From a virus: a stretch of 64,000 nucleotides of DNA. Each line of letters begins with the position of its first letter. The first letter of the stretch is position 1. Below are positions 2,593-63,651 of the stretch, one piece after another. The translations under genes were made by a program, and so were the position numbers. The notes below the pieces were generated by a model. The model saw nothing but the letters and a program-made list of their open reading frames with translations, did not search any database and had not been told where the DNA came from. The stretch is taken from positions 42,358 through 106,357 of the IMG/VR virus record IMGVR_UViG_3300050343_000255; one strand, 5' to 3'.

Positions 2593-2608
2593 GCCGCATA
2601 TCTGCGGC
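2593..2608. terminator. 16-bp palindrome between convergent genes; possible bidirectional terminator
   Basis: GCCGC-ATATCT-GCGGC, the same geometry as the early-region palindromes. Confidence 0.5.
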
Positions 2609-6673: not shown

Positions 6674-6708
6674 TACGTTATTGCCAATAAACAGCTAGAA
6701 TATAAATA

Positions 6709-6766
6709 CGTTCATCCCCTAACATAAGGGGACGCAAGTACCTCAGGAATGGAGGGAAGGAACGGG
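6709..6766 (+). ncRNA. Glutamine-II riboswitch (Downstream-peptide motif)
   Basis: CGTTCA-stem(TCCCCT/AGGGGA)-CGCAAG-stem(CCTC/GAGG)-GGAACGG directly upstream of a DUF4278 gene, the motif's known context. Confidence 0.8.
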
Positions 6767-6793
6767 AAACTACACCTCACTATGGAGTTTCCA

Positions 6794-7000: not shown

Positions 7001-7026
7001 GCCCCCTTAACAGGGGGTCTTTTTTT
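7001..7026 (+). terminator. Intrinsic terminator
   Basis: GCCCCCT-TAAC-AGGGGGT followed by a T run. Confidence 0.85.
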
Positions 7027-32993: not shown

Positions 32994-34141
32994 TCAATAT
33001 ACGAAAGAGTAACCAACCGTAATGAAATCGCGGTTAAGCGTTTCAAAACCGGCAAACAGCGACCAGATCATGATGATGAAACGGCTGAAGTCGTCGTTGT
33101 TGTTCAACAGAATCTGTGCGTTGTTACCACCAATACCCACGCCAACAGCCTGAGGGCCGAAGAAGACAAGTTGAGATGCTGTGTAATCAGCAGCGCCTGC
33201 GGCCTCATCAGTCACAATCAAGTTGTAAGTGGTTTCGGGCAGGTTGGTGGACTCGAACCAACGGACACCCTCAAAGAGGAAGCCAGTAGGCATAACGGGT
33301 TGACCGGCAACAAAGCCAGCTTGACCGTAAGCAGGACCCATGCCTTGGTAGAAGTTGGCATTAGGTGCTTCACCAGGGTTCATAGGATTAACAATCCCTT
33401 GACCTGGATAACGTGCGATTTCGCGGAAGTCGGCGTTCTGACGCAGATGCATCATTGCGGTCGGATCCACGATGCAACGGTAGTAACCATCAGCGAAGGT
33501 AGGAACGTTGCGCTTACGCATGTCCTTGACCACTTCGAGGAGGTCAGTCTTGACATCGAATTTGGCGGACTCACCAGCGGCGTACGTCACACCCAAGGTT
33601 CCACCAGCGCCACCCTTAGGCTTACCGCCGGGCAGGTAGTAACCACCTTGATCTTTGCTGGCTTGACCAGCAGCTTCTGCCTTCAGCAGTTCGTTTGCGA
33701 AGACACGATCACGCCAACGACGATAGTCATCCAGCAAGGTCAAAGAACCGATGCTTTGGTGGAAGACATTCAGGTTGCCGGTATCAAGCAGCAGACGCTG
33801 AGCAGTGATCAGGGTTTCACGAGCCACCTTGAAAGTAGAAGGCTGTGAAGCATCGCGAGAATCAGCAGGGCCGGTGTACTCACGAAGAGTAACGAGCACT
33901 TTGTCCTTAACGATGTTGCGTGCGGAGGCGGATCCAAGTGTTTGATCGGCAGTCCGCTCACGGGACTCCTTAGTACCAGGCTTACCCCAGAAGCGATACC
34001 GGTCAACTGAACAGTTTGACCAGGTTGCTTGGAGAAGTCATGAACAACTACTGGCTCAACTGCCATCTCAATGATGTAGGCAGGATGAGGACGGTAAAGT
34101 TCTGCACCAAGAAGCTTCGGAAAATCATTATCAATCCACAT
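32994..34141 (-). CDS. Major capsid protein (one frameshift near 34000)
   Basis: Position; ~380 aa when joined; VTLREY, GFLFEGVRWFESTN, NDDFSRF. Confidence 0.75.
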
Positions 34142-35838: not shown

Positions 35839-36778
35839 TTAAAGATAGTCATTGACAGATTCTGATTCCTCACGCAAGTTCTTAAGTGCTTTGTGCTCTA
35901 ACGTTCTTACACGGTCACGGCTCATGTTCAACACTTGACCAATTGCTGTCATTGACATTGGTTCAAGAATATCCTCTCCAATTCCATATCTCATACTAAT
36001 TACAGCAGCTTGCATTTCAGGAAGCTCACCAATTAGTTCTCGAATATCATCTTTAATGAACTGTTGCTCTAGCAGCATTTCTGGTAGTTGTGTTTTATCT
36101 TCTAATAGATCAATCAATGCTGTATCCCGATTCTCTCCAATTTTAATTTCTAATGATGTAGGTTGACGAGCCTTACACATTAAATCTTTAATTTCATCTA
36201 CCTTTAGATTTAGGTATTCAGATAATTCAAATACATTTGGAAGCTGTCCATTGATCTGACTTAATTCACGTTGGGCTTTCTTAAGTTTGTTGAGGTTCTC
36301 AGTAACATGGATTGGTAACCGGATCGCCCTCGATTTCTCAGCGATTGCGCGAGTGATCCCTTGACGGATCCACCAGTAGGCGTAAGTAGAAAACTTGTAA
36401 CCACGGCCAGGATCAAACTTCTCGACGCCACGTACGAGACCGATCGTGCCTTCTTGGATAATGTCCAGAAGGTCCATGTTCCGCTTGGTGTATTTCTTAG
36501 CAACGGACACCACAAGCCGGAGGTTGGCAGTAACCATTTTGTCTTTGGCTTTTTCACCATCTCTGATTTGTTTGCGTAGATCCTTGTAAGGAACATCCAG
36601 CACTCGTGATACATCTTTGTGTCATCTAGCTGTAGTTCATCTTTAATGTTTTGATTTCCATCAAACGTTGAACTTGTCTGCCTAACAAGATTTCTTCGTC
36701 ATGCTCAAGTAAAGGAATTCGTCCGATATCACGGAGATATGCACGGACAGAATCTCCTGTACTCTTTGTAGATGCCAT
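35839..36778 (-). CDS. Sigma70-family (cyanobacterial group-2-like) sigma factor, frameshifted
   Basis: [62 protein letters not shown]. Confidence 0.93.
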
Positions 36779-41580: not shown

Positions 41581-43121
41581 TTATAAATTAAAGCTGTCAC
41601 TATTGTAGTCCATTTGTAAACTACCTCTTCTTAGTAGTCCACCCATTGTTAGTACCATTGAATCTACAGCGTCATCATGTGGTGAATGTCCAAAGTTAAG
41701 TAGCTCTTCTTCTAGTACATCCCACTTACGCCATTTATTCCATATAACTTTCTTGTGTTCATATAAACCAAGTACACCTCGAAGCCTTGCAAGTTTATCT
41801 CCTTTAAATCCTTTAACTGGAGAAACAGATAAGGTTATACAGTGCACGTTGTTCCAAGAATTATTCTTTTAAAATCACCTTCAAATGAGTTTTGATAAGC
41901 AACGGCTTCAGGCCATATTATGCACGGCGACATTGTTGGAAAAAATTGACCTTCGTCATTCTCAAGGACTATATTCCAATCAGCAAGCATTTGGCAGAGC
42001 AGATCCATCTTATCGAGATTGCCCATCGTGCGAGCACGCCGTTGATCGATCATGTAGATTTTGCCTTCTTTAATTCCACCAAGAGTCATGACAGTCCAGT
42101 CATTCTTCTCTTTTAATCCAGCACTTAGGTCAATACCTACACCAAGACAATCGTAATCATCTGGTACTTCTCCTTTAATAATAAGTTCTGGTGAGATGCC
42201 AACATCAGTTGACTTAACTGCTGTATTCAAGTACTGATATGCAAAGGCAACACGATCTTCTAACTTACGATCATTAAGATATTTCATTGACCAAAACTCT
42301 GGCCAATAGGAACGCTGCTTTCCGTCAGCGTCTGTTATGACTGCTCGCTGAACAATCTGTTTCCACTTGTTTTTTGGAACGAATAACGTGGCGTGAATAT
42401 CGTCAAAGTGGAAGCGGGTTCCCAAACAGATAGCCCGTGCACCTTGAAACATCGTTGGTGCGATAACGTTAGACCACGTCTGCTCCATCTCACGGCGAAT
42501 GTCTGGGTTGTTGATCGAAGCGGCAGATTTGATAGGGTCATCAATAAGCACCAGCTGCGATCGTTTAGAGGTGATTGCACCTTTGAGACCACCACACGCA
42601 ATTGTGAAAGCTTCTTCACCTGCTGTGTCAATTCCTGCAAACTCATAATCAATAGACCAGTATTCATCCGAACGTTTTATTTTTGAGAGTCTGACCATTG
42701 GAAAGATCTCTCGATATTTGTTACTTATAAGTATCCCTTTAATCGTTGCTGACTTGGCACGACTAATGTCTACCATGTAAGCGATGTAAAGGATACGCAG
42801 CATCTGCTTGGCAGCTGCATGTCGTCCAATCATCCATGCTGCAAACAAACCAAGGACAGTACTTTTGGCAGAACCACGTGGTGCAAGGATCGATGTATTC
42901 GGACCTGCGATTCCTATTAAGCATTCACTATCTTCACCAGTACATAACTCTGCATGCCACTCCAGCATATGTTTTGCAGGAGCTTTACCCATGAACTTAC
43001 AAAAGTCTTGGAAATTATCTCTTGCTTTTAAAACTTCTTCACTAGGTGGTTTTACAGTTACCTTCGTTGCGTTCATCAACGCTATTCGTCTGTATGCTAA
43101 TGAAGCGCTAGGTATTGCCAT
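41581..43121 (-). CDS. terL: Terminase large subunit (frameshift near 41850)
   Basis: Walker A APRGSAKST, Walker B LVLIDD, GTRFH..D, nuclease GIDLS and HDDAVDS. Confidence 0.92.
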
Positions 43122-51000: not shown

Positions 51001-52236
51001 TAGAATGTCTGCTCATTGATCTCTACCAAATCCTGCATCTAATTCGTCATCATCTAGGAACTTAATACCATCAAGCTCTGGACGTCCCACATTTGCAGTA
51101 GTTGTCTTCTCTGACTGTGCAATCTGCCGTAGATATTGGTCTGGATCAAACTGTTGGTCAGCCCTGGCCTGGCGACGTTGCTGACGAGACACAGCAGAAG
51201 CATTTCTTCTTGCGACAACCCAAGGGTTTGTCGGGCGGCCTGGAATTGTGCACTTTGGATTAATGCATTATTGAGGCTTTGTTTAGCTTCTAGTGACACT
51301 ATTTCTACTGCGTAAACCTACAACTATTGTAGATAATTTAAATATCTTTTATTTACCTAGCATGCTTGTTCATAAAAAGATCTTTCAAACCCTGGGATGC
51401 AAATCTTTTAGTAGGAATATCTAAACCTTTTGCTAATTGATTCATTACTCCATCTTCCATCTCAGCTTTGTAATCAGGTTTCACAGCTGTAGACAATTCA
51501 ATGCCTTCAATCATTGGAGTGACACCTGGAATAATTGGAGTGGATCCTGCATTCATCGAAGAGGGCAGTTGACCTTTTGCAACTAACTGGGCAGCAGCAT
51601 TTTTAAAAGCTTGAGCATCTTGTGGAGTTGAATTACCAATAGAACTGCCATCAATTACAGTCTCAAGTCCACCATTGTTAATAGCAATAATGTCATCACG
51701 GGATCTACCCGTATCATCCATTTGATCTTGGATATCAGCATTTTTCATACGAGTGCTTTGGAATCCGCTTTTGGCAAACTCCTTTTGTGCCAAAGCAGGG
51801 TTAGCCTTTGCCCATTCTTGAAGATCTTTACGGTCGGCATACATCTCTTGGATGTCACTCATATTTGCCTGACCGGCTTTAAAGTTAGATGCATACCTTG
51901 CTCTGTAGCATTTGGATCTAATTTTGGACCCTTTGCAGTATCTGGTGCTGATTGATTGCTTAGTTAATTGCTTCTTGTGTCTCTTCAGGTGAGAGCGTAT
52001 CAAAGCCTTGAATAGGTTTCTTATCTTCGATTTTGTTTTTTGAGCTTACCTGCCAAAAATTGCTTGAGAAAGTCGTCTTGCTCTAGTCCTAATGCTTGAC
52101 GTAAGTTTTTACCGTATTCACCATATGCTTGTGAAACTGCAGCACCTGCATTCATCAATGGATTAATTATTCCTGCATTTATATTTTTGACGTTCACACC
52201 TGGGATAAAATTTCACCAAAATATTTAATAGCCATT
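44997..52236 (-). CDS. Cluster of Gly/Ala/Gln-rich hypothetical genes, probably ejection/internal virion proteins (44997-45797, 45797-46340, 46458-46793, 47248-48436, 48475-48987, 49332-51299, 51353-52236)
   Basis: Glycine-zipper hydrophobic segments, coiled coils, late-operon position; many frameshifts. Confidence 0.5.
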
Positions 52237-52269
52237 GTCATTTTTAATACTGAATCAATTGTATCTAAT

Positions 52270-52391
52270 GCAAAAACTACTCTTGCTACGCTGTTTCCCT
52301 ATATTGTTTATTTAAAAAGGTAAGAGTAATAGGTAGCTAGGAATTAACAAAGGATATATACAAAACAAGCGTAGTTTGCGTAGTTCGTAGC
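52270..52391 (+). repeat. Dispersed CTACG inverted-repeat element, copy B
   Basis: GCAAAAACTAC..GCTACGCT...TATAT...TTTAAAAAGG...ATTAACAA...TATA.AAAAC..CGTAGTTTGCGTAG. Confidence 0.8.
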
Positions 52392-53083
52392 AAGGATTCA
52401 AACAAAGCAGCGTTGCCTCGATATTCCCACGATTGTCAACGTCCGCTCACACAGCCATATATAGTATGTACCCTAAGTTATGGGACATATACCCAAATTT
52501 AAAAGGGTAGGAGTCGGTCAATATTGACATATGGCACAAAAGAGTTCCCTATAGGACCCTAAATTAGTTAGAAAATTTTCGACACGTCTAATCCCTTCTG
52601 TACCCCGGTAACCGGTGGAACAAAAAAAATATACACACGTTTCACATGTGATTAACATTTGTTTTGAACACAAGTAACAACAGAAGGATTCAACTCAAGT
52701 TAACAACAGTAAAGTTTACACATAATGTTTCACATTTGTTTTACTTATGTTGTAACAGTTGAGTTCTTACACACGTCACGTTCGCTTTACAGAAGTATCA
52801 CTTTCGTTTATAGGAACATCTGTCGTTGACGTATGTGTATACATTGTTCCCCTGTGAAATTCATGGGCGTCATTTCGAGTCACACGATGACTACGATACA
52901 CGAGAGCTGGAATGTAACACAATGGCGTCAATGACGCCTCTAATTGTGTTCTTTATGTGTCACACATGCAATCACATGATCGGTCTTGTTCACTTAGCTG
53001 GCTATTTACCTTGTCCAGATTGGTACACAATGGCGTCAATTGACGCCTCTATTTCATTGTGTTCTTTCGATACTAAGTATCTC

Positions 53084-53419
53084 ATGCGTAAACTCGCTAC
53101 CCTTACCAAGATGACTGCCAAAGGTCTGTCAACTTGGACATTCGCTCAATGTGACAGTGTCTACGTCGCATTCGGTGGTACTACTAACCGATGCAGAGTA
53201 TTCACTACACATGCACAGCTTCAGGACTGCATGCTCAACTATGCGTCCTATGGCTATCAAGTAGAACGTCATACGACCAAGCGTCGTTGGGACGGAGCTA
53301 CTCCTAAGCCTATTAAGCGTGTACCACCATCAATGCAGCAGGAGCTTGCACTACTTGAGACTATGACTCAAGAGACTGCTCCCCGTCCTGCAGAAGATAC
53401 CTTGGTGGCACTCTATTGA
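53084..53419 (+). CDS. First early-region hypothetical protein, ends LVALY
   Basis: ATG shortly after the repeat element. Confidence 0.6.
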   Translation: MRKLATLTKMTAKGLSTWTFAQCDSVYVAFGGTTNRCRVFTTHAQLQDCMLNYASYGYQVERHTTKRRWDGATPKPIKRVPPSMQQELALLETMTQETAPRPAEDTLVALY

Positions 53420-53498
53420 GCAACAAGAGTCTTGGCGTCTATCGACGCCTTTCTCTTTCTATGCCCTTTTGGGCTTATTCACTTATTCGTTATCACTT

Positions 53499-53753
53499 AT
53501 GCGTATCAAAGTCCCTGGTCAAGATTTCAACGTCCGTCTCTTCGAGCGTGTTGAAACTGTTGACAACCAGTACGACATCTTCGATGTAGGCATCGAGCAA
53601 GCTGATGGCACTATCGACAGTGTCTGTGTCGGTGGTTCCTTTGCATATGCCAAGTCACTCGTCAAAACTATTGATGAGAAGGCTGAGCAAGCTAAGGCTT
53701 CCAAAGCTAACGAGCCTCTCGTCGCCGTCGCGCCTCCCGCCTCTGCGGCTTAG
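53499..53753 (+). CDS. Hypothetical protein
   Basis: ATG after the repeat element. Confidence 0.6.
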   Translation: MRIKVPGQDFNVRLFERVETVDNQYDIFDVGIEQADGTIDSVCVGGSFAYAKSLVKTIDEKAEQAKASKANEPLVAVAPPASAA

Positions 53754-54029
53754 CGCTTGACGCTGTGTCCACCGCTATTGCGGGGGCTTTTTTCATTTGT
53801 CCTTTACATCTGTATCACCAATGTTAAGTCCATTCAAAGTGATCTGTGCATTCAGAGAATCTCCTCTGTCATTGATGCACTAGATCTATCATTTGATGAC
53901 TATTCCAACGACCCTACTGCCAACTATTACTGGCGTAGGATGCTCACTCGTGCTATAACTCCTTACATTCTGTACTGAGTTTCGATTACACCCAAGGTGG
54001 CACTCGAACATGGCACAAATGTACTGTTA

Positions 54030-54386
54030 TCACATAAGTGATATCTGACCGGACTCCTGTTGGTCTGCGGGTCCTCCGAAGCCAGCAGCAATATCCATAA
54101 CTCCACGACCTGCTAAGGCTACGCCTGCGGCTGGAATTATGTATTTGGGGACTGTACTAGCTACTGGAAGTGCATACTCCATAGCTGTTTGTACAGCTCC
54201 CCCAGGTCCGTCTATCTCTCCCTTACGTAAGGAAGGGTGACCACCACCTGCAATTACTGCAGCAGCTTGAACAGCTGGGTTAGCTCCCTCGTACATCTTA
54301 TTGATACGAGTGGTGTAACCATCATCAAACTCACGAAGTTTGTTGACAATACTGTTCAGCATGTCACCTGCCTTACGTCTATCCAT
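54030..54386 (-). CDS. Inverted hypothetical gene starting MDRRKAG
   Basis: TACAATGA about 20 nt upstream; Gly/Ala-rich. Confidence 0.6.
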   Translation of the reverse strand: MDRRKAGDMLNSIVNKLREFDDGYTTRINKMYEGANPAVQAAAVIAGGGHPSLRKGEIDGPGGAVQTAMEYALPVASTVPKYIIPAAGVALAGRGVMDIAAGFGGPADQQESGQISLM

Positions 54387-54873
54387 ATCCTTATCCTGTT
54401 TTATACCTCATTGTATCTACATGTGGGATAACTAACAGTTACTATTGAATTGAGATTATTAACATAATGGCACCTATACTTATAACTATATTGATGACTA
54501 CCTTGGTCAACAATGTTTCCCCGCTGATAAGTACTCCAACCCGTCCTTTGAACGTGTGTGAAGAGATCGGTATCGAATTACAACTCGCTATCGATGCTTC
54601 CGTACTCACTCCCAAAGAGGCTCAAGGAATACTTAATCGCTGTTACGAACTACAAGAGTCACAAGAACCTGATGGTCTATACGTACGTCATAATCCTAGG
54701 TACATGGGGCATAGCCTCAGTCGTACTGCTACTACTTAAGCTTCTATAGCTTATTGAGAACTATTATCAACTATATATAGAATGGGTATTCACTACTCCC
54801 ATTACCGTATATACCGTTGCCTGTCCTATGAATTACATAGGTAAATTAGGGGAGCGGTATATATAAATAAGCA

Positions 54874-55113
54874 ATGTCCGTATTTGACCTTATGAGCCCA
54901 TTTGATCCATGGCTGACTTCACGAAGTCCGTCCGTTTATGTTATATCTGATTCAGAAATGAAGGCATATAAACAGAAACAAGCAGTCGCGGAAATCGCTG
55001 AACTGCAACGGCTAGTCGATGGTCACAAGAGTTCTATTGAACGCCTTGAGACACACATCAGCCAACTCGAAACAGAGCTTCCAAAGCTCACCGAAACATC
55101 TAATGCCGCATAA
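54874..55113 (+). CDS. Small coiled-coil protein
   Basis: VYVISDSEM...coiled coil; structured leader upstream. Confidence 0.65.
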   Translation: MSVFDLMSPFDPWLTSRSPSVYVISDSEMKAYKQKQAVAEIAELQRLVDGHKSSIERLETHISQLETELPKLTETSNAA

Positions 55114-55321
55114 CTGCGGCTGTAGATATAAATGTTCAATATATAGAAACAAGCAGTGATTGTCTTCGATCAAACTACCATCATTCTCGCTGTAATCGGC
55201 ATGGTTGGGCTCCTCTCCACAGGAGTTGTCCTAACCACAGCATTCAAGCGTAGACCTTTGAGTTAGTAACACTGGCGCTTATCAGCGCCTGTAATTACTT
55301 ATGTCCTTTGGATATTATTCC

Positions 55322-55519
55322 ATGACTACTATCACCAGCCGCAAAACAGCTGAACTTAAAGCCTTTCCTCCTATTACAGACACCGTTGTCTGGATTAAAC
55401 AGGTGGATTGGGCAGACGTTCGTCAACGCTGCCGTGGCGGAGTTAACAACGTCGGACTTGTCCTCGCTGTAACTGGTGAAAAGATCCATGACCTTGGCGC
55501 TTGGTTAGCTGAGGTCTGA
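55322..55519 (+). CDS. Hypothetical protein
   Basis: ATG after the repeat element. Confidence 0.5.
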   Translation: MTTITSRKTAELKAFPPITDTVVWIKQVDWADVRQRCRGGVNNVGLVLAVTGEKIHDLGAWLAEV

Positions 55520-55640
55520 TCTATCTGGGGATAACAGTGTGGGAGCTCTGCGTTTCGCATGACGAGGCATGACAACCCCAGAGTGCACAAGATTGCCGCT
55601 TAATCGCGGCTTTCTTTTTGTGTACTCTTTGCAAGATTAC

Positions 55641-56159
55641 ATGAACGCTATTGCTTCAACTCACTACGTAGGTATACACCGTACGTCTCCATCTAAACAA
55701 CGCATCGTGCATGCGTTTGACTTGGACGACACTATTACGATCAAGCCTGATCACTTCAACAACATAGGCATGACCAAAGACGAGTTCTTTGATGCCTCCA
55801 GGTCATTCAAACCTGATGACCGTGTTGTTGATTTACTACGGATGATGCATCAGTGGGGCGATTCAATCGCTATCTGCACTGCTCGTCCATCCGACAGGCT
55901 CACTGAATCCTATAACTGGCTTCGCAAGTGGTCTATTCCATTCGATTGCATCCTTGTTTCCACTGGTGTGGACAACAGCGGTAATACCAAGCAGCACATG
56001 CTTCAGTATTTACGCAAGCAATACCGGATGGTTGGCACCCTTATCGATGACAGTCCATACAACATTGAAGGTGCACGCCTTCAGAGGATCAAGCGTATCC
56101 ATGTACTCAAGAATTGTGAGTACTGGGCTGCCCATCCTGAGAGCGTGGTCAAGGTATGA
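55641..56159 (+). CDS. HAD-superfamily phosphatase (PNKP phosphatase-like)
   Basis: FDLDDT, ICTARP, K, IDDS. Confidence 0.8.
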   Translation: MNAIASTHYVGIHRTSPSKQRIVHAFDLDDTITIKPDHFNNIGMTKDEFFDASRSFKPDDRVVDLLRMMHQWGDSIAICTARPSDRLTESYNWLRKWSIPFDCILVSTGVDNSGNTKQHMLQYLRKQYRMVGTLIDDSPYNIEGARLQRIKRIHVLKNCEYWAAHPESVVKV

Positions 56160-56510
56160 AGTTAGTTCTCTATTTCCTTCTAGCCTTCTACTTCAATGCA
56201 GAAGCTACATCCATAGGTCTATGCCTACTACCTCCACTTAGTGGGACGGTTAAGCATGACATTTGTTCCGATGAACAATAGCCGCTAACTCGCGGCTCTC
56301 TTTTCTCGTGTCCAATGAATTGTCACTATGACTGATGTACAACTACGTGCTGCTGCTCGCCTTAAGGCTGAACTCCTACGTCAGACTAAAGAGCGAGTAC
56401 GTGACGCCTATTACCTGCGTAAAGCAGGGGTCATGACAGCCATCGTGTGAACACTTGAGGGTCGCTGACTCGCGACTCTCTTTTTTAGTGTTCTTCAAAT
56501 CGAATGCTTA

Positions 56511-56720
56511 ATGGCAATCACCTACGACTTCACCATTGTTGCTACCAACATTACTGGTTTGTCTAAGGTGGTTCCTCAGAACGAAGCTGCGTTCTGCTAT
56601 CTCGTAGATGAAACCGATTACACCGTCTTTGCTGACGGTTCCACCGCTCTATTCCAGGAGCGTGTCGGTGACTTTATCTCCGATGCAGGCCACGCACACA
56701 TGTGCTGCGATATCGCTTGA
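56511..56720 (+). CDS. Hypothetical protein
   Basis: ATG after the repeat element. Confidence 0.55.
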   Translation: MAITYDFTIVATNITGLSKVVPQNEAAFCYLVDETDYTVFADGSTALFQERVGDFISDAGHAHMCCDIA

Positions 56721-56780
56721 GTTGACCACCACTGGCGCAAATTTGCGCCTTTCTCATTTTTTGTAATTTAAGAGGTTTAT

Positions 56781-57173
56781 TTGACCCAATCTTTCAACGT
56801 CCCTGATGGCATCTCTATGGATGAGCTTACGTCTCATCTTAAGGATGCGCCAAATGAATCAGATATTCACGATGAGTGCACCTGTGAACGTGCAGAAAAT
56901 ACAGAAGATCTTATGGAGCTTGCTTCAGAACAGATCGCATTAACTGGACGCATGACAGATGATCCTGTTGCATTCCACAAAATCATGATAGTCATGATCA
57001 TTTCTAACATGATCGACTTTCACATGAATGTTGCAACTAAATCAGGTGGAATGGATGACGATACATCTCAAGCGTGGATTCGTGACGCTGGCAAATTACA
57101 AGCAGTCATGAACATCCTTACGACTATCTCATGTGGTCCTGATGACCCATATGTAACAGCATCCTGCAACTGA
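56781..57173 (+). CDS. Hypothetical acidic protein
   Basis: GAGG ribosome-binding site with TTG start. Confidence 0.6.
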   Translation: MTQSFNVPDGISMDELTSHLKDAPNESDIHDECTCERAENTEDLMELASEQIALTGRMTDDPVAFHKIMIVMIISNMIDFHMNVATKSGGMDDDTSQAWIRDAGKLQAVMNILTTISCGPDDPYVTASCN

Positions 57174-57234
57174 TTGCCTCAATAGCCGCTTAACAGCGGC
57201 TTTCTTTTTACATGTTCTTTATCAAAGGTTTCCT

Positions 57235-57720
57235 TTGAACAACACTTCACCTCGCTACGCTCAGTTCAACGCTCTCACCGTCACCGGTCGCATCTTCAAT
57301 GCTGAGATCGTGGACAACAAAGGCAACAAGTTCTTGAGTGTATCCGTAATCAGCACTGCCTCCAAGGATGGCGCTGACTTGGTCTACACCTTCAACAACT
57401 CCAATGGCTTGATGGGCCTCTTTGAGAAGGGTTACTTCTGCAAAGGTCGTCAAGTCACTATCACTGGACACCTTCACAACGTCTCTGAGGTCTACACCAC
57501 ACAGACTGGTGAAGTTCGCATGCGTAAGCGCCCTGAGATCCACCTCACAGGCGTAAACGTGCTTGATGGTGGCCTTGGTCCTATGCCTAACGCAGATGGA
57601 CAAGCACAGCGTCTCTCAGCAGGCACTGTCATCACTCAAGTGGGAACACCTGAGGTTGACGAAACTCCATCTATGGAGCCTGTTGAAGAAGCAGAAGAAG
57701 AGCTTGTAGCTCTTTATTGA
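57235..57720 (+). CDS. ssb: Single-stranded DNA-binding protein (OB fold)
   Basis: N.LTVTGRI...KGRQVTITGHL...Y....GE.R; acidic tail. Confidence 0.75.
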   Translation: MNNTSPRYAQFNALTVTGRIFNAEIVDNKGNKFLSVSVISTASKDGADLVYTFNNSNGLMGLFEKGYFCKGRQVTITGHLHNVSEVYTTQTGEVRMRKRPEIHLTGVNVLDGGLGPMPNADGQAQRLSAGTVITQVGTPEVDETPSMEPVEEAEEELVALY

Positions 57721-57728
57721 TAACAACT

Positions 57729-57767
57729 CCCGGCCGTGTATCCCACGGCTGGGTTTTTTCTTTTTTT
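57729..57767 (+). terminator. Intrinsic terminator
   Basis: CCCGGCCGTG-TATCC-CACGGCTGGG followed by a T run. Confidence 0.85.
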
Positions 57768-57800
57768 AAACTATGGACATCGCAATCTATCTAACTATCT

Positions 57801-58049
57801 ATGCCACGTTCGCAATCTACTGCTACGTCCTCACCAAAGTCCAAGAGGACTGATTGGACATACACCCTAAGTAAAAGCAGGTATGGGTTATACACATCTA
57901 TTCTTACTGACGGCACCCGAATGGTCACTGGAATGACAGAAGAAGGTGTTCGTGTAGTTACGGACACTATTCACATCCCTGTCATGAAAGGTGAGTTCGA
58001 TGGATACACATCAATACCACGTAAGGGTGTAGTGGACGGGAAGCTTTAG
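57801..58049 (+). CDS. Hypothetical protein
   Basis: 82-aa ORF. Confidence 0.55.
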   Translation: MPRSQSTATSSPKSKRTDWTYTLSKSRYGLYTSILTDGTRMVTGMTEEGVRVVTDTIHIPVMKGEFDGYTSIPRKGVVDGKL

Positions 58050-58954
58050 TGCTTGCCGTTCTTGCCGTTACCGTTGATCGCCTTATTCATGTAGACCTTG
58101 TCAGCAATGACAGTGACTGCCTTACCTTGGTCAGATGTATTGACATCACCCTGAAGTGCTTGACGGTATGCATCTAAGACAGACTTGTCTGCAAATCGTT
58201 TGTCATTAAATCCGTAATTCATTGCACGACCTTCCTGTTTGCCAACCATATTTTGAAAATCTTTGTACTTTAATAAACGTTGAATATCAACGTCATCTAA
58301 TACTTTACTATTGTATAACCCAGCAGCATTAATACGACGACGTGCACCGTCAATTAACTCAAGTCGTTTTGGACCTTCAGAATCTCCAAGCATTTGATTG
58401 ATTAATGATAATTCTGGACGCAACCTAGTACCACCTTGACTATTAGATTCTAAATGTCCTTGATCTTGTGATCTACCAATGATTGGTGCATCTGTATAAA
58501 GATCTCTTCCATATGAGCCTTTGTATAGCAACTCTTTTACAGCATCAACCTTTGAATCACGATTGCCTGCAGCCTTGCCATGCAATCCTCGTGTTGCAAG
58601 CATTTCAAGAGATTGTCCGTCTAATAAATTAGCCAATATCTCTGCACGTTCATAATCTAAATCATTTGCACTTGGATTTTCTCCTGCAGATAACTCTCTT
58701 TTGCCTGTTTTTATAAAGTCTTTTTCAACTCGCTCTGCAGCATCAAGAGCTTGCATGAGTAATGAAGGTGTATAAGCTTCTGCTTCAACAGCTTCAACTC
58801 CTAATGAACCCTCGCTGCCAACCCGAGTAGACGATAAATCAGCAATATTTCCTGAGTTATCACGTACAAATTTTAAATTAGACGGTGCCAGTAAATCACG
58901 TTCAATTGCTTTCAACGAATAATCATTATTACTGTTTAAATTTCTTGCACGCAC
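58046..58954 (-). CDS. Inverted hypothetical gene with a possible HNH-like segment
   Basis: GRDLYT...DQGHLESNSQGG...INQMLG; TAGAATAG upstream. Confidence 0.5.
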   Translation of the reverse strand: MRARNLNSNNDYSLKAIERDLLAPSNLKFVRDNSGNIADLSSTRVGSEGSLGVEAVEAEAYTPSLLMQALDAAERVEKDFIKTGKRELSAGENPSANDLDYERAEILANLLDGQSLEMLATRGLHGKAAGNRDSKVDAVKELLYKGSYGRDLYTDAPIIGRSQDQGHLESNSQGGTRLRPELSLINQMLGDSEGPKRLELIDGARRRINAAGLYNSKVLDDVDIQRLLKYKDFQNMVGKQEGRAMNYGFNDKRFADKSVLDAYRQALQGDVNTSDQGKAVTVIADKVYMNKAINGNGKNGKH

Positions 58955-59066
58955 TCATACACATACCTATGATTATTAATTCACATAGATATCACTTACT
59001 TCAATATCTATTCTATTAATTATTAATTACTAACTAATATATTTAGAAGCTGCTAACTAATATCTA

Positions 59067-59516
59067 TTGCATAAATCTTCGGACAAACGTAAGCAAAGTA
59101 AATATCAAGCATTTCACTATTTGTTAAAACAGCTTGCTGACTTTTATAAAGATGCAGATGAAGCAGCTCAACAGTTGCTAGAAACAACTGTGGGTGCAAC
59201 GATCTTCTATCTACCTACCCGTAAAAAGCTTCATTACTCAGGCATGATTTCTGCTGAAGCGTTGGAATCTGGCAAAGAAACTCAAGAACATATGTTTCCA
59301 CGCAAGATTGCAGCAACAGCTTTACTTAAATCTGTGCCTGATACTGTTCAACTATTAATTGACAAGTGTGATGGTCTGTACCTCAGGTATCACATCGTCA
59401 CACCTTCACAGAACAAACAACTATGTCCCTTTCAAAAACACGACGTATTTGTTAATCCTGAAACTGCTTACTTCAAAGCAGGTATTCAGTTGATTAACGA
59501 TCCACGGCTTGCATAA
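59067..59516 (+). CDS. Hypothetical protein, possible His-Me-finger-like motif
   Basis: EHMFPR...IVTPSQN. Confidence 0.45.
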   Translation: MHKSSDKRKQSKYQAFHYLLKQLADFYKDADEAAQQLLETTVGATIFYLPTRKKLHYSGMISAEALESGKETQEHMFPRKIAATALLKSVPDTVQLLIDKCDGLYLRYHIVTPSQNKQLCPFQKHDVFVNPETAYFKAGIQLINDPRLA

Positions 59517-59570
59517 GATTTGCCGCTGACTCGCGGCTTTCTTTTCTCGTGTCCTTTGACATCTAGATCT

Positions 59571-59792
59571 ATGGAACAACAAATGATCCTGATCTCTAAA
59601 CCAGAAGTTGAAAGGTTGCTAGGCAAACTTCAACGAGCAGAAGGCTATTGCCGTAATGCACGTTCGTCTACTCCTTTCAATCCTGAAACGGACATCCATG
59701 CAGAACCGTGGGAGTTCTTTGTCGGATCCTCTGGATTCGCAGGAGCTGTCATGCGTGATGCAATTCAATCACTCGAATCACATCTGAACTAA
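59571..59792 (+). CDS. Hypothetical protein
   Basis: ATG after the repeat element. Confidence 0.55.
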   Translation: MEQQMILISKPEVERLLGKLQRAEGYCRNARSSTPFNPETDIHAEPWEFFVGSSGFAGAVMRDAIQSLESHLN

Positions 59793-60229
59793 TGGGAACT
59801 CGATCTGCTATTGGCTATCTACAACCGTCCGGTTCCGTCCGTGCGGTTTATTGCCATTGGGATGGCTACCCAGAAAATCAACTCCCGATACTGAAGTCGA
59901 GGTACAACACTCTCGCCAAAGTAAAGGCTTTGATTAAACCTGGGTTTATGTCATGCCTAGAAACTACCCACACGTGGGAATCTGAATACCAGCGTGATGC
60001 CAACGGTAAAGCATTATTTGATTTACCACAGACACATAGCCGTGAACCACAACCTCTGTATCACGCAGAGCGTGGGCACGGTGAAAAACCCAAAACCAGT
60101 GGCAATGCCTTTGATTACTGGCGCGATATGGATTGTGAGTACTTGTATGTCTTTACTGGCACTTCGTGGATTACTTATTCACTACGCGACTCACCTCATA
60201 CACGTATGCATATCCATGATGAAACCTAA
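59792..60229 (+). CDS. Conserved phage protein of the YCHWDGYP type
   Basis: MGTRSAIG...VYCHWDGYP...EYLYVF. Confidence 0.7.
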   Translation: MGTRSAIGYLQPSGSVRAVYCHWDGYPENQLPILKSRYNTLAKVKALIKPGFMSCLETTHTWESEYQRDANGKALFDLPQTHSREPQPLYHAERGHGEKPKTSGNAFDYWRDMDCEYLYVFTGTSWITYSLRDSPHTRMHIHDET

Positions 60230-60408
60230 CCCATCTAAGTATATTTTTACCTAGTATGGATTGGTGTTCCCGTAGAAGAACAGCGGCAGGGACACTCAAT
60301 TAGGTTTCAGGCATTTTTGCTGTTTCTGTCTGAGTAATTAACCGGGTCGCCCCTTTTGGTGGCTCGGTCCCTTACTCGATCACATATATACACTCAAAAA
60401 GATTCACC

Positions 60409-60702
60409 ATGGCTAATTACACAATCGAAGTCACTACTGAAGATGGTGGCAACTTTACTTTCCCTTGTGAAAGTGACCAGTACATCATTGAAGCTGCAGA
60501 AGAAGCAGGCGTTGAACTCAACTATTCATGCCGTGCTGGTGCATGCTCAACCTGTGTAAGCAAGCTTGTGTCTGGCACTGTTGATCAATCAGATCAAAGC
60601 TATTTGGACGATGACCAACAAGCAGAGGGCTTCTTTATGTCCTGTGTTGCTTATCCAACCTCTGACGTAAAGATGATCTCTGATGTTGAAGACCAACTCT
60701 GA
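60409..60702 (+). CDS. petF: Plant-type [2Fe-2S] ferredoxin
   Basis: YSCRAGACSTC...VDQSDQSYLDDDQ...CVAYPTSD. Confidence 0.97.
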   Translation: MANYTIEVTTEDGGNFTFPCESDQYIIEAAEEAGVELNYSCRAGACSTCVSKLVSGTVDQSDQSYLDDDQQAEGFFMSCVAYPTSDVKMISDVEDQL

Positions 60703-60868
60703 CCTAACATTTATGACTGAACAACCTGACAAGTTCCCCTTCGACGACATCGAAGAACTAGAACGTGAAGAAGATGAGCTCCCTGCTATCCCTGCATGGC
60801 CCTCTATCTTCGAATCAAGCATCCTTAATAATTAAGTAAAATATCCATAGCATCTAAATTTATTAGCT

Positions 60869-61508
60869 ATGGGTAAGAAAAAAGATTTTGATAATTTCAG
60901 AAATCGTTTTAATAGTACTGGCAAAGTAGGCAAAAACGAATTTAGTGTTGACGGCAAATCCTTTGACTACCGTGATCCTAAAAATCTAGAAAATGCACAA
61001 GTTGGATCTAGAGGTGATCGTGGCATTAGAGACGATCAAAAATATAATCCAAATGCGTATGACTATACTGATCCTCTGTACGATTATTCAAAGGGAGCGG
61101 TACGTGATGCTGCAAAAGCACTAGGCATTGGTAATGTCAATGAAAAGTCTGAAGTAAAGCAAATCCTCAAATACATTCAAGATGTTCCAGATAAACCAGG
61201 AAGATGATAAACCAAAAGAGTTCTTGAAAAGATATATTGACAAGAAAGTGTCTCCTGCTGAAAACGAATCCACACAAGCAGAAGTAGAAATCCCCTCTAC
61301 TCCTACTGCGTCAGGTGATGGCAGTATTAATTCACCAATCTCACAAGCTAGTCCTATAAACATTGATGGCAATCGAAATAGTGTTAAGCAAAATAATGCT
61401 ATTTCTCAGGAAATTGACAATTCAACTGATAACTCAGACAACAGCTCCAAGATTTTTTTAGATAGCTATAAGCTCAATCTTGGCGATAAATTTAAAATGT
61501 TTGCTTAA
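60869..61508 (+). CDS. Hypothetical protein (frameshift near 61200); shares a block with 40645-41572
   Basis: GDGSINSPISQA block. Confidence 0.55.
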
Positions 61509-61517
61509 AATCCCCTT

Positions 61518-61656
61518 AAAACTACAAAGCTACACTTGCTACGCTACTTTTCCTATATGTGCATTTTTAAAAAGATAGTAATAAGAGAGGAGACTGCGTA
61601 ATAAAAAAAGATATATATAGGGAACTTGTGCGTTTTGCGTAGTTTACGTAGTTTGC
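61518..61656 (+). repeat. Dispersed CTACG inverted-repeat element, copy C
   Basis: AACTAC..GCTAC.CTTGCTACGCT...TATAT...TTTAAAAAG...TATATAG...TTTGCGTAGTTTACGTAGTTTG. Confidence 0.75.
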
Positions 61657-61851
61657 CTAGTACCCCAAAAAAGGCATTTTTAATTGCGGCGCAAGCACAT
61701 TCACGCAAAAAAACGCTTTTTAAAAACCGCTACAAAACCTATCTGCGACTCTTGTCAGCGACAGTTACAATTCGTAACCGAGCCCAGAATTGGCAACAAT
61801 GCTCTATTTGGACCAATTTTTAGTTATTTTATTCCCATTCAAGTCGCTTTC

Positions 61852-62199
61852 ATGCAGCGCATCGACGTTCCTTGTGACGAAAAATTCGCTGCTGTTCTCA
61901 AAGAGTACTGCGCCTACTGGGGCATGACTATGGGAGAACTCATGTACGAAGCAGCGAAACAGCACATCCACTCATCTGCACAAGTGTGTGACCTTGCAGA
62001 TGGCCTTTTGCGTAAGCAAGGGATGATTCCTGACAAACGCTCAGCAAAGCACTGTTATGGCTATTTATGCCGGTGCTGCAAACATCAGCTTGCTTGCAGA
62101 ACTGGTCTTTATAAAAACGAATGGGAAATTGCTGAACAACACCAGCATTTGTTAAAAGAACAACCTGAAGCATGTTCATGTGACAGTTGTATTTCATGA
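61852..62199 (+). CDS. RHH-like DNA-binding protein with a C-x4-C-x2-C-x5-C domain, paralogue 1
   Basis: RIDV..DE....LKEYCAYWGMTMGELM; CYGYLCRCCKHQLAC. Confidence 0.7.
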   Translation: MQRIDVPCDEKFAAVLKEYCAYWGMTMGELMYEAAKQHIHSSAQVCDLADGLLRKQGMIPDKRSAKHCYGYLCRCCKHQLACRTGLYKNEWEIAEQHQHLLKEQPEACSCDSCIS

Positions 62200-62513
62200 A
62201 AAAACTTCAAGTGCAAATGCCTGACCCATGTCATGCGGTATTAAAGGACTATGCCAATGCTTGGGGCATGACAATGTCTGAAGTGATGTATGAAGCCACT
62301 CGTTGCTTTATGCACAAACATTCAGAGAATTGTGGATACATCAATTCATTATTTACATTTAGACGTATCAAAGCTGACAAACGACTTACCAAAGAATGTT
62401 ATGGACATCCTTGTTTTGCCTGTGAGCACCTAGTTGCTTGTAAAACAGGACAATACAAAGGTGGCTGGGAAATGTCTGAGAAAGTTTCTGAGTACATTAA
62501 TCTGCAAGCATAA
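62196..62513 (+). CDS. RHH-like DNA-binding protein with a C-x4-C-x2-C-x5-C domain, paralogue 2
   Basis: KLQVQMPD..HAVLKDYANAWGMTMSEVM; CYGHPCFACEHLVAC; ATGA overlap. Confidence 0.7.
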   Translation: MKKLQVQMPDPCHAVLKDYANAWGMTMSEVMYEATRCFMHKHSENCGYINSLFTFRRIKADKRLTKECYGHPCFACEHLVACKTGQYKGGWEMSEKVSEYINLQA

Positions 62514-62690
62514 TTTTTTTTGCATGAAAGCTTAACAATAAGTTAGACGATTGATATCTGTATGTCTCGATATATTTAATCAAAAAAATGTATCAACGCA
62601 AACGTTGCACTTGTGGTGTGAATAATCATACTTTCATTGTCGCTTAGCAGCGACTTTCACAACTGGTGTCCAATACATGGCTACAACCAA

Positions 62691-63651
62691 ATGCCCTCAA
62701 ATTTCACATCTGGCTGGCTCGGCAATGGAGAACGTGCATGGCACGGGCAAGGGGTTGTCACCCCTGGCACACTCCCAGCGCGAGAAGCGTTTGAAACAGC
62801 AGACGCACTATTTTCTGTCGAGAAGCGCGAGCTCTTCTTCCCCAACAGCAACGCACTTCCAACCAATGATGAGTCCTTGTGGCTCCCATCAAACTCCTAC
62901 GGAGTTGTCCGAACTGACACCCAAGCCTTGCTCGGAGTTGTCACCAAGCAATACGAGATCGTCCAAAACGAATCGCTCCTACGCATGGCGGAGTTCATCC
63001 GTGAAGAGGCAGACATGGACTGCGTCATCGTTCTATCGGACGGAGCCAAAGTCTGTTTTACCGCCACACTCCGTGGTGCGGAGACGGACATCGTCCCTGG
63101 AGACACCGTCAAACGACGAATTGTTGGTTACTTGGGCCACGACGGTAAAACCGGCTGTGGAGCAAAGTTCACAAACATCCGTGTGGTTTGCCAAAACACT
63201 TTGACTGCAGCCTTATCTGGGACTGGTGCTTCTTCAAGCATCACTCACAAGGGAACTGCTAACGCTAACTTCGATGCTCTTATCAACAGTATCGATGTAG
63301 CACGTCAAGACTTCACTACTGAATGTGACCTGATGCGTGAGTTCTCACGATTCAGTATTACTTCTAGTCAATTTAATGACTTTGTAGATGAGGTCTACAA
63401 CATCGACGAAGGTCAAGCCTTCGTAAACGTGACAAAAGCTTGAGCAAGCATTCCGTGAATTGGATACGGTTCTGAATATGCCTCTTTCAGTCTTTGGAAT
63501 GGCTTTAATGCCATCACACAAGCTAGAAACAAGCACACGTAATCAAACTGCTGCTAAGTCTCGTGCACAGTTCGCACGTGGTACTTTCGGCCTTGGTGCT
63601 GTTATAAGCAAGAAAGCTTTCTCTATTGCACAAGAACTAGTTACAGCTTGA
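62691..63651 (+). CDS. DUF932 (LGT_TIGR03299-type) protein, frameshifted near the C-terminus
   Basis: AWHGQG, VVRTDT...LGVV...Y.IVQN, HDG, IRVVCQNTL. Confidence 0.85.

Follow-up and report, generated by a model that had tools for sequence, protein, structure and literature searches.

Which signal stands in front of the small early genes of the virus record IMGVR_UViG_3300050343_000255, and at what level does it act? The question is raised by a stretch of 64,000 nt within this 106,357-bp record (positions 42,358 to 106,357, called the window below; coordinates are window coordinates unless a record or contig is named), in which a short GC hairpin, 12 bases and a TGYYC box recur between genes. 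An earlier note on this DNA had described the element as a phage-specific signal and had left open whether it is a hairpin promoter, an RNA processing or leader element, an operator or a recombination joint. We confirm that the two-part signal precedes most of the small early genes, that it is real and that it is conserved in relatives.

The strict pattern GNCGY-N6-RCGNC-N12-TGYYC matches nine times in the window, always on the plus strand, and 100 shuffles yielded no match. In the whole 106-kb record it occurs 19 times in forward and never in reverse orientation, and a control pattern gave zero. A covariance model was built from 48 non-identical copies of six genomes, together with a position matrix; close relatives were collected with an alignment query in place of a search with the HAD-like protein, which returned five loci only. 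The scan of the genome and its relatives that the earlier note had called for revealed, for close relatives, some 15-20 copies on the sense strand of each genome; the covariance model also found copies in about 30 related contigs. Essentially all of its matches in close relatives lie on the strand of the gene, as do 42 of 42 in more distant contigs. Rfam gave no match at the elements, neither at the gathering threshold nor at E <= 1.

The eight copies listed at the outset are present with coordinates and sequences exactly as described. The copy at 55105, which had been filed as a variant, is a full match to the strict pattern and thus the ninth. The other variants fared unevenly: those at 52924, 53770, 55595 and 56734 are real but degenerate and unlike each other, and the hairpin at 2593 has no box and is a plain terminator. 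The copies in the window are as follows.

52924..52951, plus strand: decayed copy, GGCGTC-AAT-GACGCC with a 3-nt loop, an 8-nt spacer and TGTTC; lies in a leader with no separate downstream gene; weak covariance-model match (E = 0.03)
53032..53064, plus strand: element, GGCGTC-AATT-GACGCC, 12 nt, TGTTC; ATG at 53084 (19 nt past the box); could also fold an outer stem ACACAAT/ATTGTGT
53434..53474, plus strand: long-leader element, hairpin, 12 nt, TGCCC; the box lies in a hairpin GCCC-tttt-GGGC, followed by TTATTCACTTA; ATG at 53499
53769..53802, plus strand: variant, imperfect stem CCACCGC-TATT-GCGGGGG, 11-nt spacer, TGTCC; ATG at 53821; the allele of the other strain is a hairpin without a box
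55105..55137, plus strand: element whose U-tract is poor (TGTAGATATAAA); the upstream open reading frame (ORF) ends with its stop codon, TAA, in the loop
55274..55306, plus strand: element, GGCGCT-TATC-AGCGCC, 12 nt, TGTCC; ATG 15 nt after the box
55595..55627, plus strand: variant with the box TACTC; ATG of the HAD-like 172-aa gene 13 nt after the box
56281..56313, plus strand: element, (A)GCCGC-TAACTC-GCGGC(T), TGTCC; ATG 14 nt after the box
56461..56493, plus strand: element, GTCGC-TGACTC-GCGAC, TGTTC; stem extensible to 9 bp, then U6, which gives it the look of a canonical terminator; ATG 17 nt after the box
56734..56766, plus strand: variant with the box TGTAA
57185..57217, plus strand: element, GCCGCT-TAAC-AGCGGC, TGTTC; no copy in the window scores higher with the covariance model; a small hairpin contains the downstream TTG start
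59522..59554, plus strand: element; the other strain lacks the upstream gene, and the two strains are homologous again from exactly the box onwards
62639..62671, plus strand: element before the DUF932-like gene, whose conserved start is the ATG at 62691, 19 nt after the box

The hairpin occupies positions 1-16 and consists of a GC stem of 5-6 bp and a loop that mostly reads T-A-W-C or TGACTC, with an A at position 8 that does not vary in the close relatives. Loop lengths across relatives range from 3 to 6 nt and are mostly 4 or 6 (TAWC, TGACTC); the more distant relative L120 has a 3-nt loop (TCC or ACT) and still keeps the 12-nt spacer and the box. The tail reads T17-N-T19-M-T-T-T, followed by four variable bases and a purine at position 28; in the position matrix T17 and T19 are invariant and T21-23 frequent, and the purine is found in 56 of 57 copies. 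The box itself, T29-G30-Y-Y-C33, is followed by T-T-T, and G30 and C33 are invariant. Several copies had been said to lack a U-tract, which is true of those at 55105, 55274 and 62639.

The seeds of the model were picked for perfect pairing, so that only the diversity of pair types is evidence of covariation. This diversity is large: the co-variation already noted for the stem extends to all six pairs, each of which changes on both sides (pair types GC, CG, UA and AU), and the stem covariation score of 0.69 compares with 0.16 for shuffles and less than 0.1 when the partner is slid. The free covariation of the stem indicates that pairing, and not sequence, is under selection. Accordingly, orthologous elements in front of the same 213-aa gene carry the stems GCCGCT, GCGCCC and GCCGGC, and an orthologous stem GCCCCC was likewise seen. 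For the G.U versus A.C asymmetry of this hairpin there were just three informative mismatches, too few to weigh. An outer stem, GAACAC/GTGTTC, was rejected as a defining part of the element: only 11 of 23 TGTTC elements have it and no compensating GGACA accompanies TGTCC, although some copies do fold in this way.

In divergent relatives (G003, G004/G005, L120, L126 and L155) the stems are genome-specific (GCGCCC, GCCGGC, GCCCCC, GCAGGC). That such a stem type is common to the boxed elements and the plain terminators of a genome suggests copy-to-copy homogenisation or a co-evolving reader.

The proposed fixed spacing holds as well. Between the end of the hairpin and TGYYC lie 12 nt in 79 cases, 11 nt in 16 and 13 nt in 15, over a background of about 4 per position in a scan of about 37 related genomes and contigs, in which the reversed box showed no peak. 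In contigs whose flanking protein is only 31-45% identical, the spacer sequence varies while its 12-nt length and TGYYC stay. The genes downstream belong to unrelated families, each of which retains the element at orthologous positions.

How is the element tied to these genes? A start codon had been placed within about 15-35 nt of the element. This is correct and can be sharpened: counted from the box to the first ATG that opens an ORF of at least 30 codons, the distances fall into two groups, one of 12-21 nt (mode 14, n = 50) and the other of 30-38 nt (n = 24). The leaders are markedly G-poor and, like most genes of the phage, without a Shine-Dalgarno sequence. Where the start lies 30-38 nt away, the box reads TGCCC or TGCCT and, in 22 of 25 distinct sequences, pairs with a downstream GGGC(A) as the 5' arm of a second, small hairpin; shuffles gave 4.0 of 25 on average and 10 at most. 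This hairpin occurs in compensatory forms (TGCCT/AGGCA versus TGCCC/GGGCA) with variable loops, and its G.U pairs would be A.C mismatches on the opposite strand. RNAalifold did not call it in the long class, and it was scored instead with a purpose-written script. Past it, a second box, TGTYM, lies 15-20 nt before the ATG. Among all elements, a 5-bp complement to the box is found at most 45 nt downstream in 26 of 76 (7.2 ± 2.3 when shuffled), and several of these complements overlap the start codon. The location of the box in a covarying second hairpin places it inside the transcript, at least in these classes.

A comparison of hairpins with and without the box, made on GC hairpins followed by T-N-T and a T-rich tail, bears directly on the proposal that the element is not a plain terminator. 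A same-strand ORF starts just downstream of 43 of the 48 boxed hairpins and of 21 of the 65 boxless ones (odds ratio 18, Fisher p = 7e-10). The proposal thus stands: the box goes with a downstream gene on the same strand, and the plain terminators of the phage are boxless. In the window the latter close transcription units, at convergent junctions or at operon ends.

57729..57753, plus strand: contrast terminator, strong 10-bp stem and long U-run, no box; ends a plus-strand unit
7002..7017, plus strand: contrast terminator, CCCCC-TTAACA-GGGGG, then TCTTTTTTTGTG, no box; end of the replication operon
2593..2608, plus strand: contrast hairpin, GCCGCA-TATC-TGCGGC, no box; kept in relatives, each with the stem type of its own genome

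The last of these is taken as a plain terminator because it is a boxless hairpin at a convergent gene junction. Within each genome boxless hairpins share the stem type of the boxed elements, which suggests that the hairpin is the generic terminator type of the phage and the box an add-on for the next gene. On the upstream side, the stop codon of the preceding ORF is no more than 20 nt from the hairpin, or is part of it, in 42 of 60 elements, and 14 of 60 have no upstream ORF nearby. Most copies fit a hairpin with a U-tract past a stop codon, several of the U-tracts being poor, and 9-10 copies satisfy a terminator scan. At -20 of late or middle genes, located by naive start calls, the box is not enriched.

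The phage carries psbA, transaldolase, hli, ferredoxin, thyX and mazG. Because its large terminase is 55% identical to the homologue of Synechococcus phage S-EIV1 in a protein search, we place it among the marine cyanophages of the S-EIV1 lineage. DNA searches of the phage collection, both near and distant, gave no matches, S-EIV1 being located by the protein search only, and S-EIV1 itself does not contain the element. Phages related to S-EIV1 have been reported to be abundant in the ocean and are almost unstudied (PMC5332604). From the late/early junction (about window 52.9 kb) onwards the plus-strand genes are small, and most belong to no known family; they continue on that strand into a tightly packed replication operon (record ~30 kb, before the window), inside which there is no element. 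The junction itself is a gene-free region of 700 bp (52200-52920) with a CTACG/CGTAG-repeat element (about 52270-52391) and several GAACAC/TGTTTCACA words, and it probably carries one or more real early promoters.

The first and last 25 kb of the record are homologous (window 39566-64000 versus record 1-25000), with 86-98% identity and indels. This terminal homology makes the record look like a concatemer-like assembly of two strain variants of a ~81-kb genome, rather than one genome with a real repeat. The DUF932-like gene behind the last element (MPSNFTSGWLGNGERAWHG..., 62691-63443, plus strand) has 250 codons in the window; the other strain copy (L114:3695-4651) has 318 and relatives have 311-331, the window copy being shortened at its 3' end. 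Outside the window, the replication operon encodes a 75-aa IF-1 homologue (PF01176, E = 2e-14; L114:13195-13422, plus strand, corresponding to record 33195-33422), which is of interest because the genes of the phage largely lack Shine-Dalgarno sequences. At 6707-6768 on the plus strand, a 76-aa ORF is preceded by a glutamine riboswitch aptamer (RF01739, 45.9 bits, cut-off 35).

The concatemer also offers a built-in strain comparison (copy A, record 13.9-30 kb; copy B, window 52.9-64 kb), and here the suggested role as a recombination joint was borne out. Four early regions were compared in pairs: of 166 homology blocks, 60 (36%) start within -20 to +35 of a hairpin start, where about 5% would be expected; block ends fall within -20 to +60 of a hairpin in 25 of 166 cases (about 7% expected). 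At 59522 the strains differ in upstream gene, hairpin and spacer and are homologous from the box exactly; at the same locus, G001 has the hairpin of one strain joined to the spacer of the other. The left-most array comprises 1, 4, 7 and 4 mini-gene cassettes in four strains, and its order is permuted, a-b-c-d in one strain and y-z-b-a-c-d in another, with protein identities of 51%, 68% and 95%. Junctions scattered over the element fit recombination at short repeats, as proposed for the PeSL elements of T4-type phages (PMC4122927), and not a site-specific enzyme. With about 15 near-identical, co-oriented copies, the cassettes would act as seams along which early genes are swapped, deleted and reordered; the cassette explains where early genes are gained, lost and rearranged.

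Conventional promoter signals are missing from the element. No position of the matrix carries a -10 or -35 signal, and between 51900 and 64000 there are 11 sigma70-like promoter matches, against 25 ± 6 in dinucleotide-preserving shuffles, none of them inside an element. The phage does encode a sigma factor of its own.

35839..36603, minus strand: sigma-70 family factor of 254 aa with regions 2, 3 and 4 and no region 1, among head and portal genes

Its closest relatives are cyanobacterial RpoD/SigD (TIGR02997, E = 2e-103). Group 1 and 2 sigma factors recognize TAnnnT, and an RpoD-like phage sigma should need it too. A search for T7-like RNA polymerase with PF00940 gave no match, a search whose control was silent too. 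The DxDGD motif occurs only in a 748-aa ORF, and a cryptic two-barrel polymerase was not found. The largest ORFs match structural PHROGs, the longest being a fibre-like structural protein of 1230 aa.

Of the options raised at the outset, it is the RNA processing or leader element that we favour, at somewhat less than even chances. We tentatively read the element as an RNA-level punctuation cassette between cistrons, in which a leaky terminator or 3' stabiliser is combined with a leader signal for the start of the next cistron, and which also serves as a seam for PeSL-like recombination. Early transcription would start from a few host-type promoters and yield polycistronic messages made by the host RNA polymerase; the sense-strand, two-module cassette would act in these RNAs to punctuate them. 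The first module, a GC hairpin of 5-7 bp with U-N-U-M-U-U-U, resembles a weak intrinsic terminator; most likely it would form or protect the 3' end of the upstream message, by leaky termination, as a 3' stabiliser after cleavage, or both. The second module, R-UGYYC-UUU, lies 12 nt past the hairpin and ~14 nt before the AUG and is followed by a G-poor leader without a Shine-Dalgarno sequence. It would most likely mark the start of the next cistron, either as a processing point or 5' end, or by ribosome/S1 loading in the pyrimidine-rich region; initiation that is independent of a Shine-Dalgarno sequence and dependent on S1 has reportedly been described on pyrimidine-rich leaders in cyanobacteria. 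In the long-leader class, the box would be sequestered by the second small hairpin. What the element does in termination, processing and translation is here predicted from its sequence and position.

Several observations weigh against this reading. A single reader of hairpin and box, which the model does not name, is suggested by the strictly kept spacing of 12 nt, by G30 and C33, which do not vary, and by the purine at position 28. U-tracts are poor in some copies. At least one element, with orthologous copies at copy A 20601 and G001 61848, occupies a divergent gap immediately past the start of a minus-strand gene; with no plus-strand gene upstream to be terminated, it would also fit a promoter. 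In the long class, the second TGTYM box stands only 2-3 nt past the second hairpin, so that the 12-nt geometry is not always needed. It is conceivable, though on balance doubtful, that hairpin, 12-nt spacer and UGYYC are recognised as one site by a single reader, which sets the 5' end of every early message. Such a reader could be a phage or host endoribonuclease, an RNA-binding protein or a factor that redirects the host RNA polymerase.

The main rival is a promoter reading: the hairpin would end the upstream message, and spacer and box would be a phage-specific promoter with a start near R28-G30, used by host RNA polymerase under the direction of a phage factor, its own sigma or another protein. 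The signal is specific for gene class and orientation and keeps fixed distances to the ATG, the purine at position 28 is near-constant, and the phage encodes a sigma-70 family protein. The element in the divergent gap, with no same-strand gene upstream, and the analogy to the PeSL/PmSL cassettes of T4-type phages (PMC4122927) point the same way. Against it, the would-be A-11 position is mostly T or C in an element that has no -35/-10 consensus, and sigma70-like sites are depleted in the region. The phage sigma, being close to cyanobacterial RpoD (E = 1e-103), would be expected to want TAnnnT. Moreover, the box of the long class lies in a covarying hairpin and hence inside the transcript, the first genes past minus-strand genes (54467 and 59067) have no element, and early promoters have to work before any phage protein exists. 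We therefore consider such a terminator-promoter joint rather unlikely. A DNA-level signal for another reader, be it an extruded hairpin promoter of the N4 type for an unrecognised phage polymerase or the operator of a dimeric regulator, seems most improbable. Perfect palindromes could extrude as cruciforms, and the stems are genome-specific in divergent relatives; yet no candidate polymerase emerged, neither a virion nor a T7-like one (the PF00940 search, with its silent control, found no match and the largest ORF is structural), and there are ~15 copies per genome and not three. The freely varying stem and the loop of 3-6 nt fit poorly to the site of a dimeric DNA-binding protein, which speaks against the operator, and the second hairpin, with its variable loops and G.U pairs, argues that the box is transcribed. 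Neither the hairpin promoter nor the operator suggested by the earlier note is therefore retained.

Could the box be without function? Plain intrinsic terminators, with box and spacing as hitch-hiking remnants of the repeated duplication of a single cassette, would account for the terminator-like hairpin and U-rich tail, and for the partial genome-specificity of the stems, which mutual homogenisation of the copies would produce. We think this very unlikely, because the spacer sequence is free to change while its length and TGYYC persist in distant contigs, unrelated downstream families each keep the element at orthologous positions, and the plain terminators of the same genomes are boxless. 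Equally, the arrays of tiny cassettes in four strains, with their permuted order, and the outer inverted repeat GAACAC...GTGTTC around 11 of 23 TGTTC elements might suggest a dedicated, attC-like site at which a phage recombinase moves mini-gene cassettes. However, most copies have no outer repeat, TGTCC boxes lack the compensating GGACA, there is no unique crossover (identity shifts in some cases where the hairpin starts, in others at the box or close to the ATG), and the integron attC core consensus (RYYYAAC / GTTRRRY) is absent from the elements, which leaves such a site scarcely credible.

The punctuation cassette is the clearest regulatory signature of the S-EIV1-related phages and marks their early gene set, and its model can be searched for in the annotation of relatives. 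We know of nothing on the timing of gene expression in these phages. If it were shown that the box defines RNA 5' ends or serves as a loading signal, a handle would be gained on gene expression without Shine-Dalgarno sequences in picocyanobacteria and their viruses. If the single-reader site is true, a widespread clade of marine cyanophages would possess a class-specific early-gene signal that involves neither a sigma70 promoter nor a Shine-Dalgarno sequence.

Parts of the element recall several known systems. As in intrinsic terminators, a GC-rich hairpin is directly followed by a U-rich tract, mostly just past a stop codon; the stems here are of 5-7 bp, however, some U-tracts are interrupted or poor, and the next gene is accompanied by a conserved box at a constant distance from the hairpin. 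The RNase III sites of the T7 early region are likewise structured intercistronic elements, and cleavage could leave a hairpin on the 3' end of the upstream message, but they are irregular duplexes of ~20 bp or more, and the hairpins described here are far too short to be cut in this way. With the virion RNA polymerase promoters of coliphage N4 the element shares a small hairpin (5-7 bp) before early genes and the preservation of structure over stem sequence. N4 has only three such promoters, a 3-nt loop with conserved bases, a start few nucleotides from the hairpin and a giant virion polymerase, whereas the loops here are mostly of 4 or 6 nt and the conserved box lies 12 nt away. The boxB-boxA order of lambda nut and rrn sites also places a hairpin before a short, conserved, single-stranded box, and TGYYCTTT is superficially similar to the E. 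coli boxA, TGCTCTTT. Mimicry of the cyanobacterial boxA was rejected: GAACCTTGAAAA with at most two mismatches occurs 9 times, against 8.3 expected, and never at an element. Unlike nut and rrn sites, moreover, the element occurs ~15 times per genome, not once or twice per operon, and its box stands past a terminator-like U-tract.

The closest likeness is to the PeSL/PmSL elements of T4-type phages (Arbiol 2010, PMC2839356; Comeau 2014, PMC4122927). Both systems consist of a repeated stem-loop and a downstream signal between small early genes, with copies that point one way in a plastic region and lie at indels, replacements and reordering between close relatives. The upstream stem-loop and the gene-content breakpoints are therefore held in common. 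PeSLs have a sigma70 promoter (TTGACA-N17-TATAAT or close variants) or a Mot box with a -10 behind the stem-loop, and this promoter is not part of the element described here, which has instead the 5-nt TGYYC at a fixed 12 nt and ~14 nt from the ATG, in an unrelated phage lineage with a cyanobacterial host. If the cassette were merely a terminator joined to a leader, it would represent the PeSL principle once again, in a new lineage of phages.

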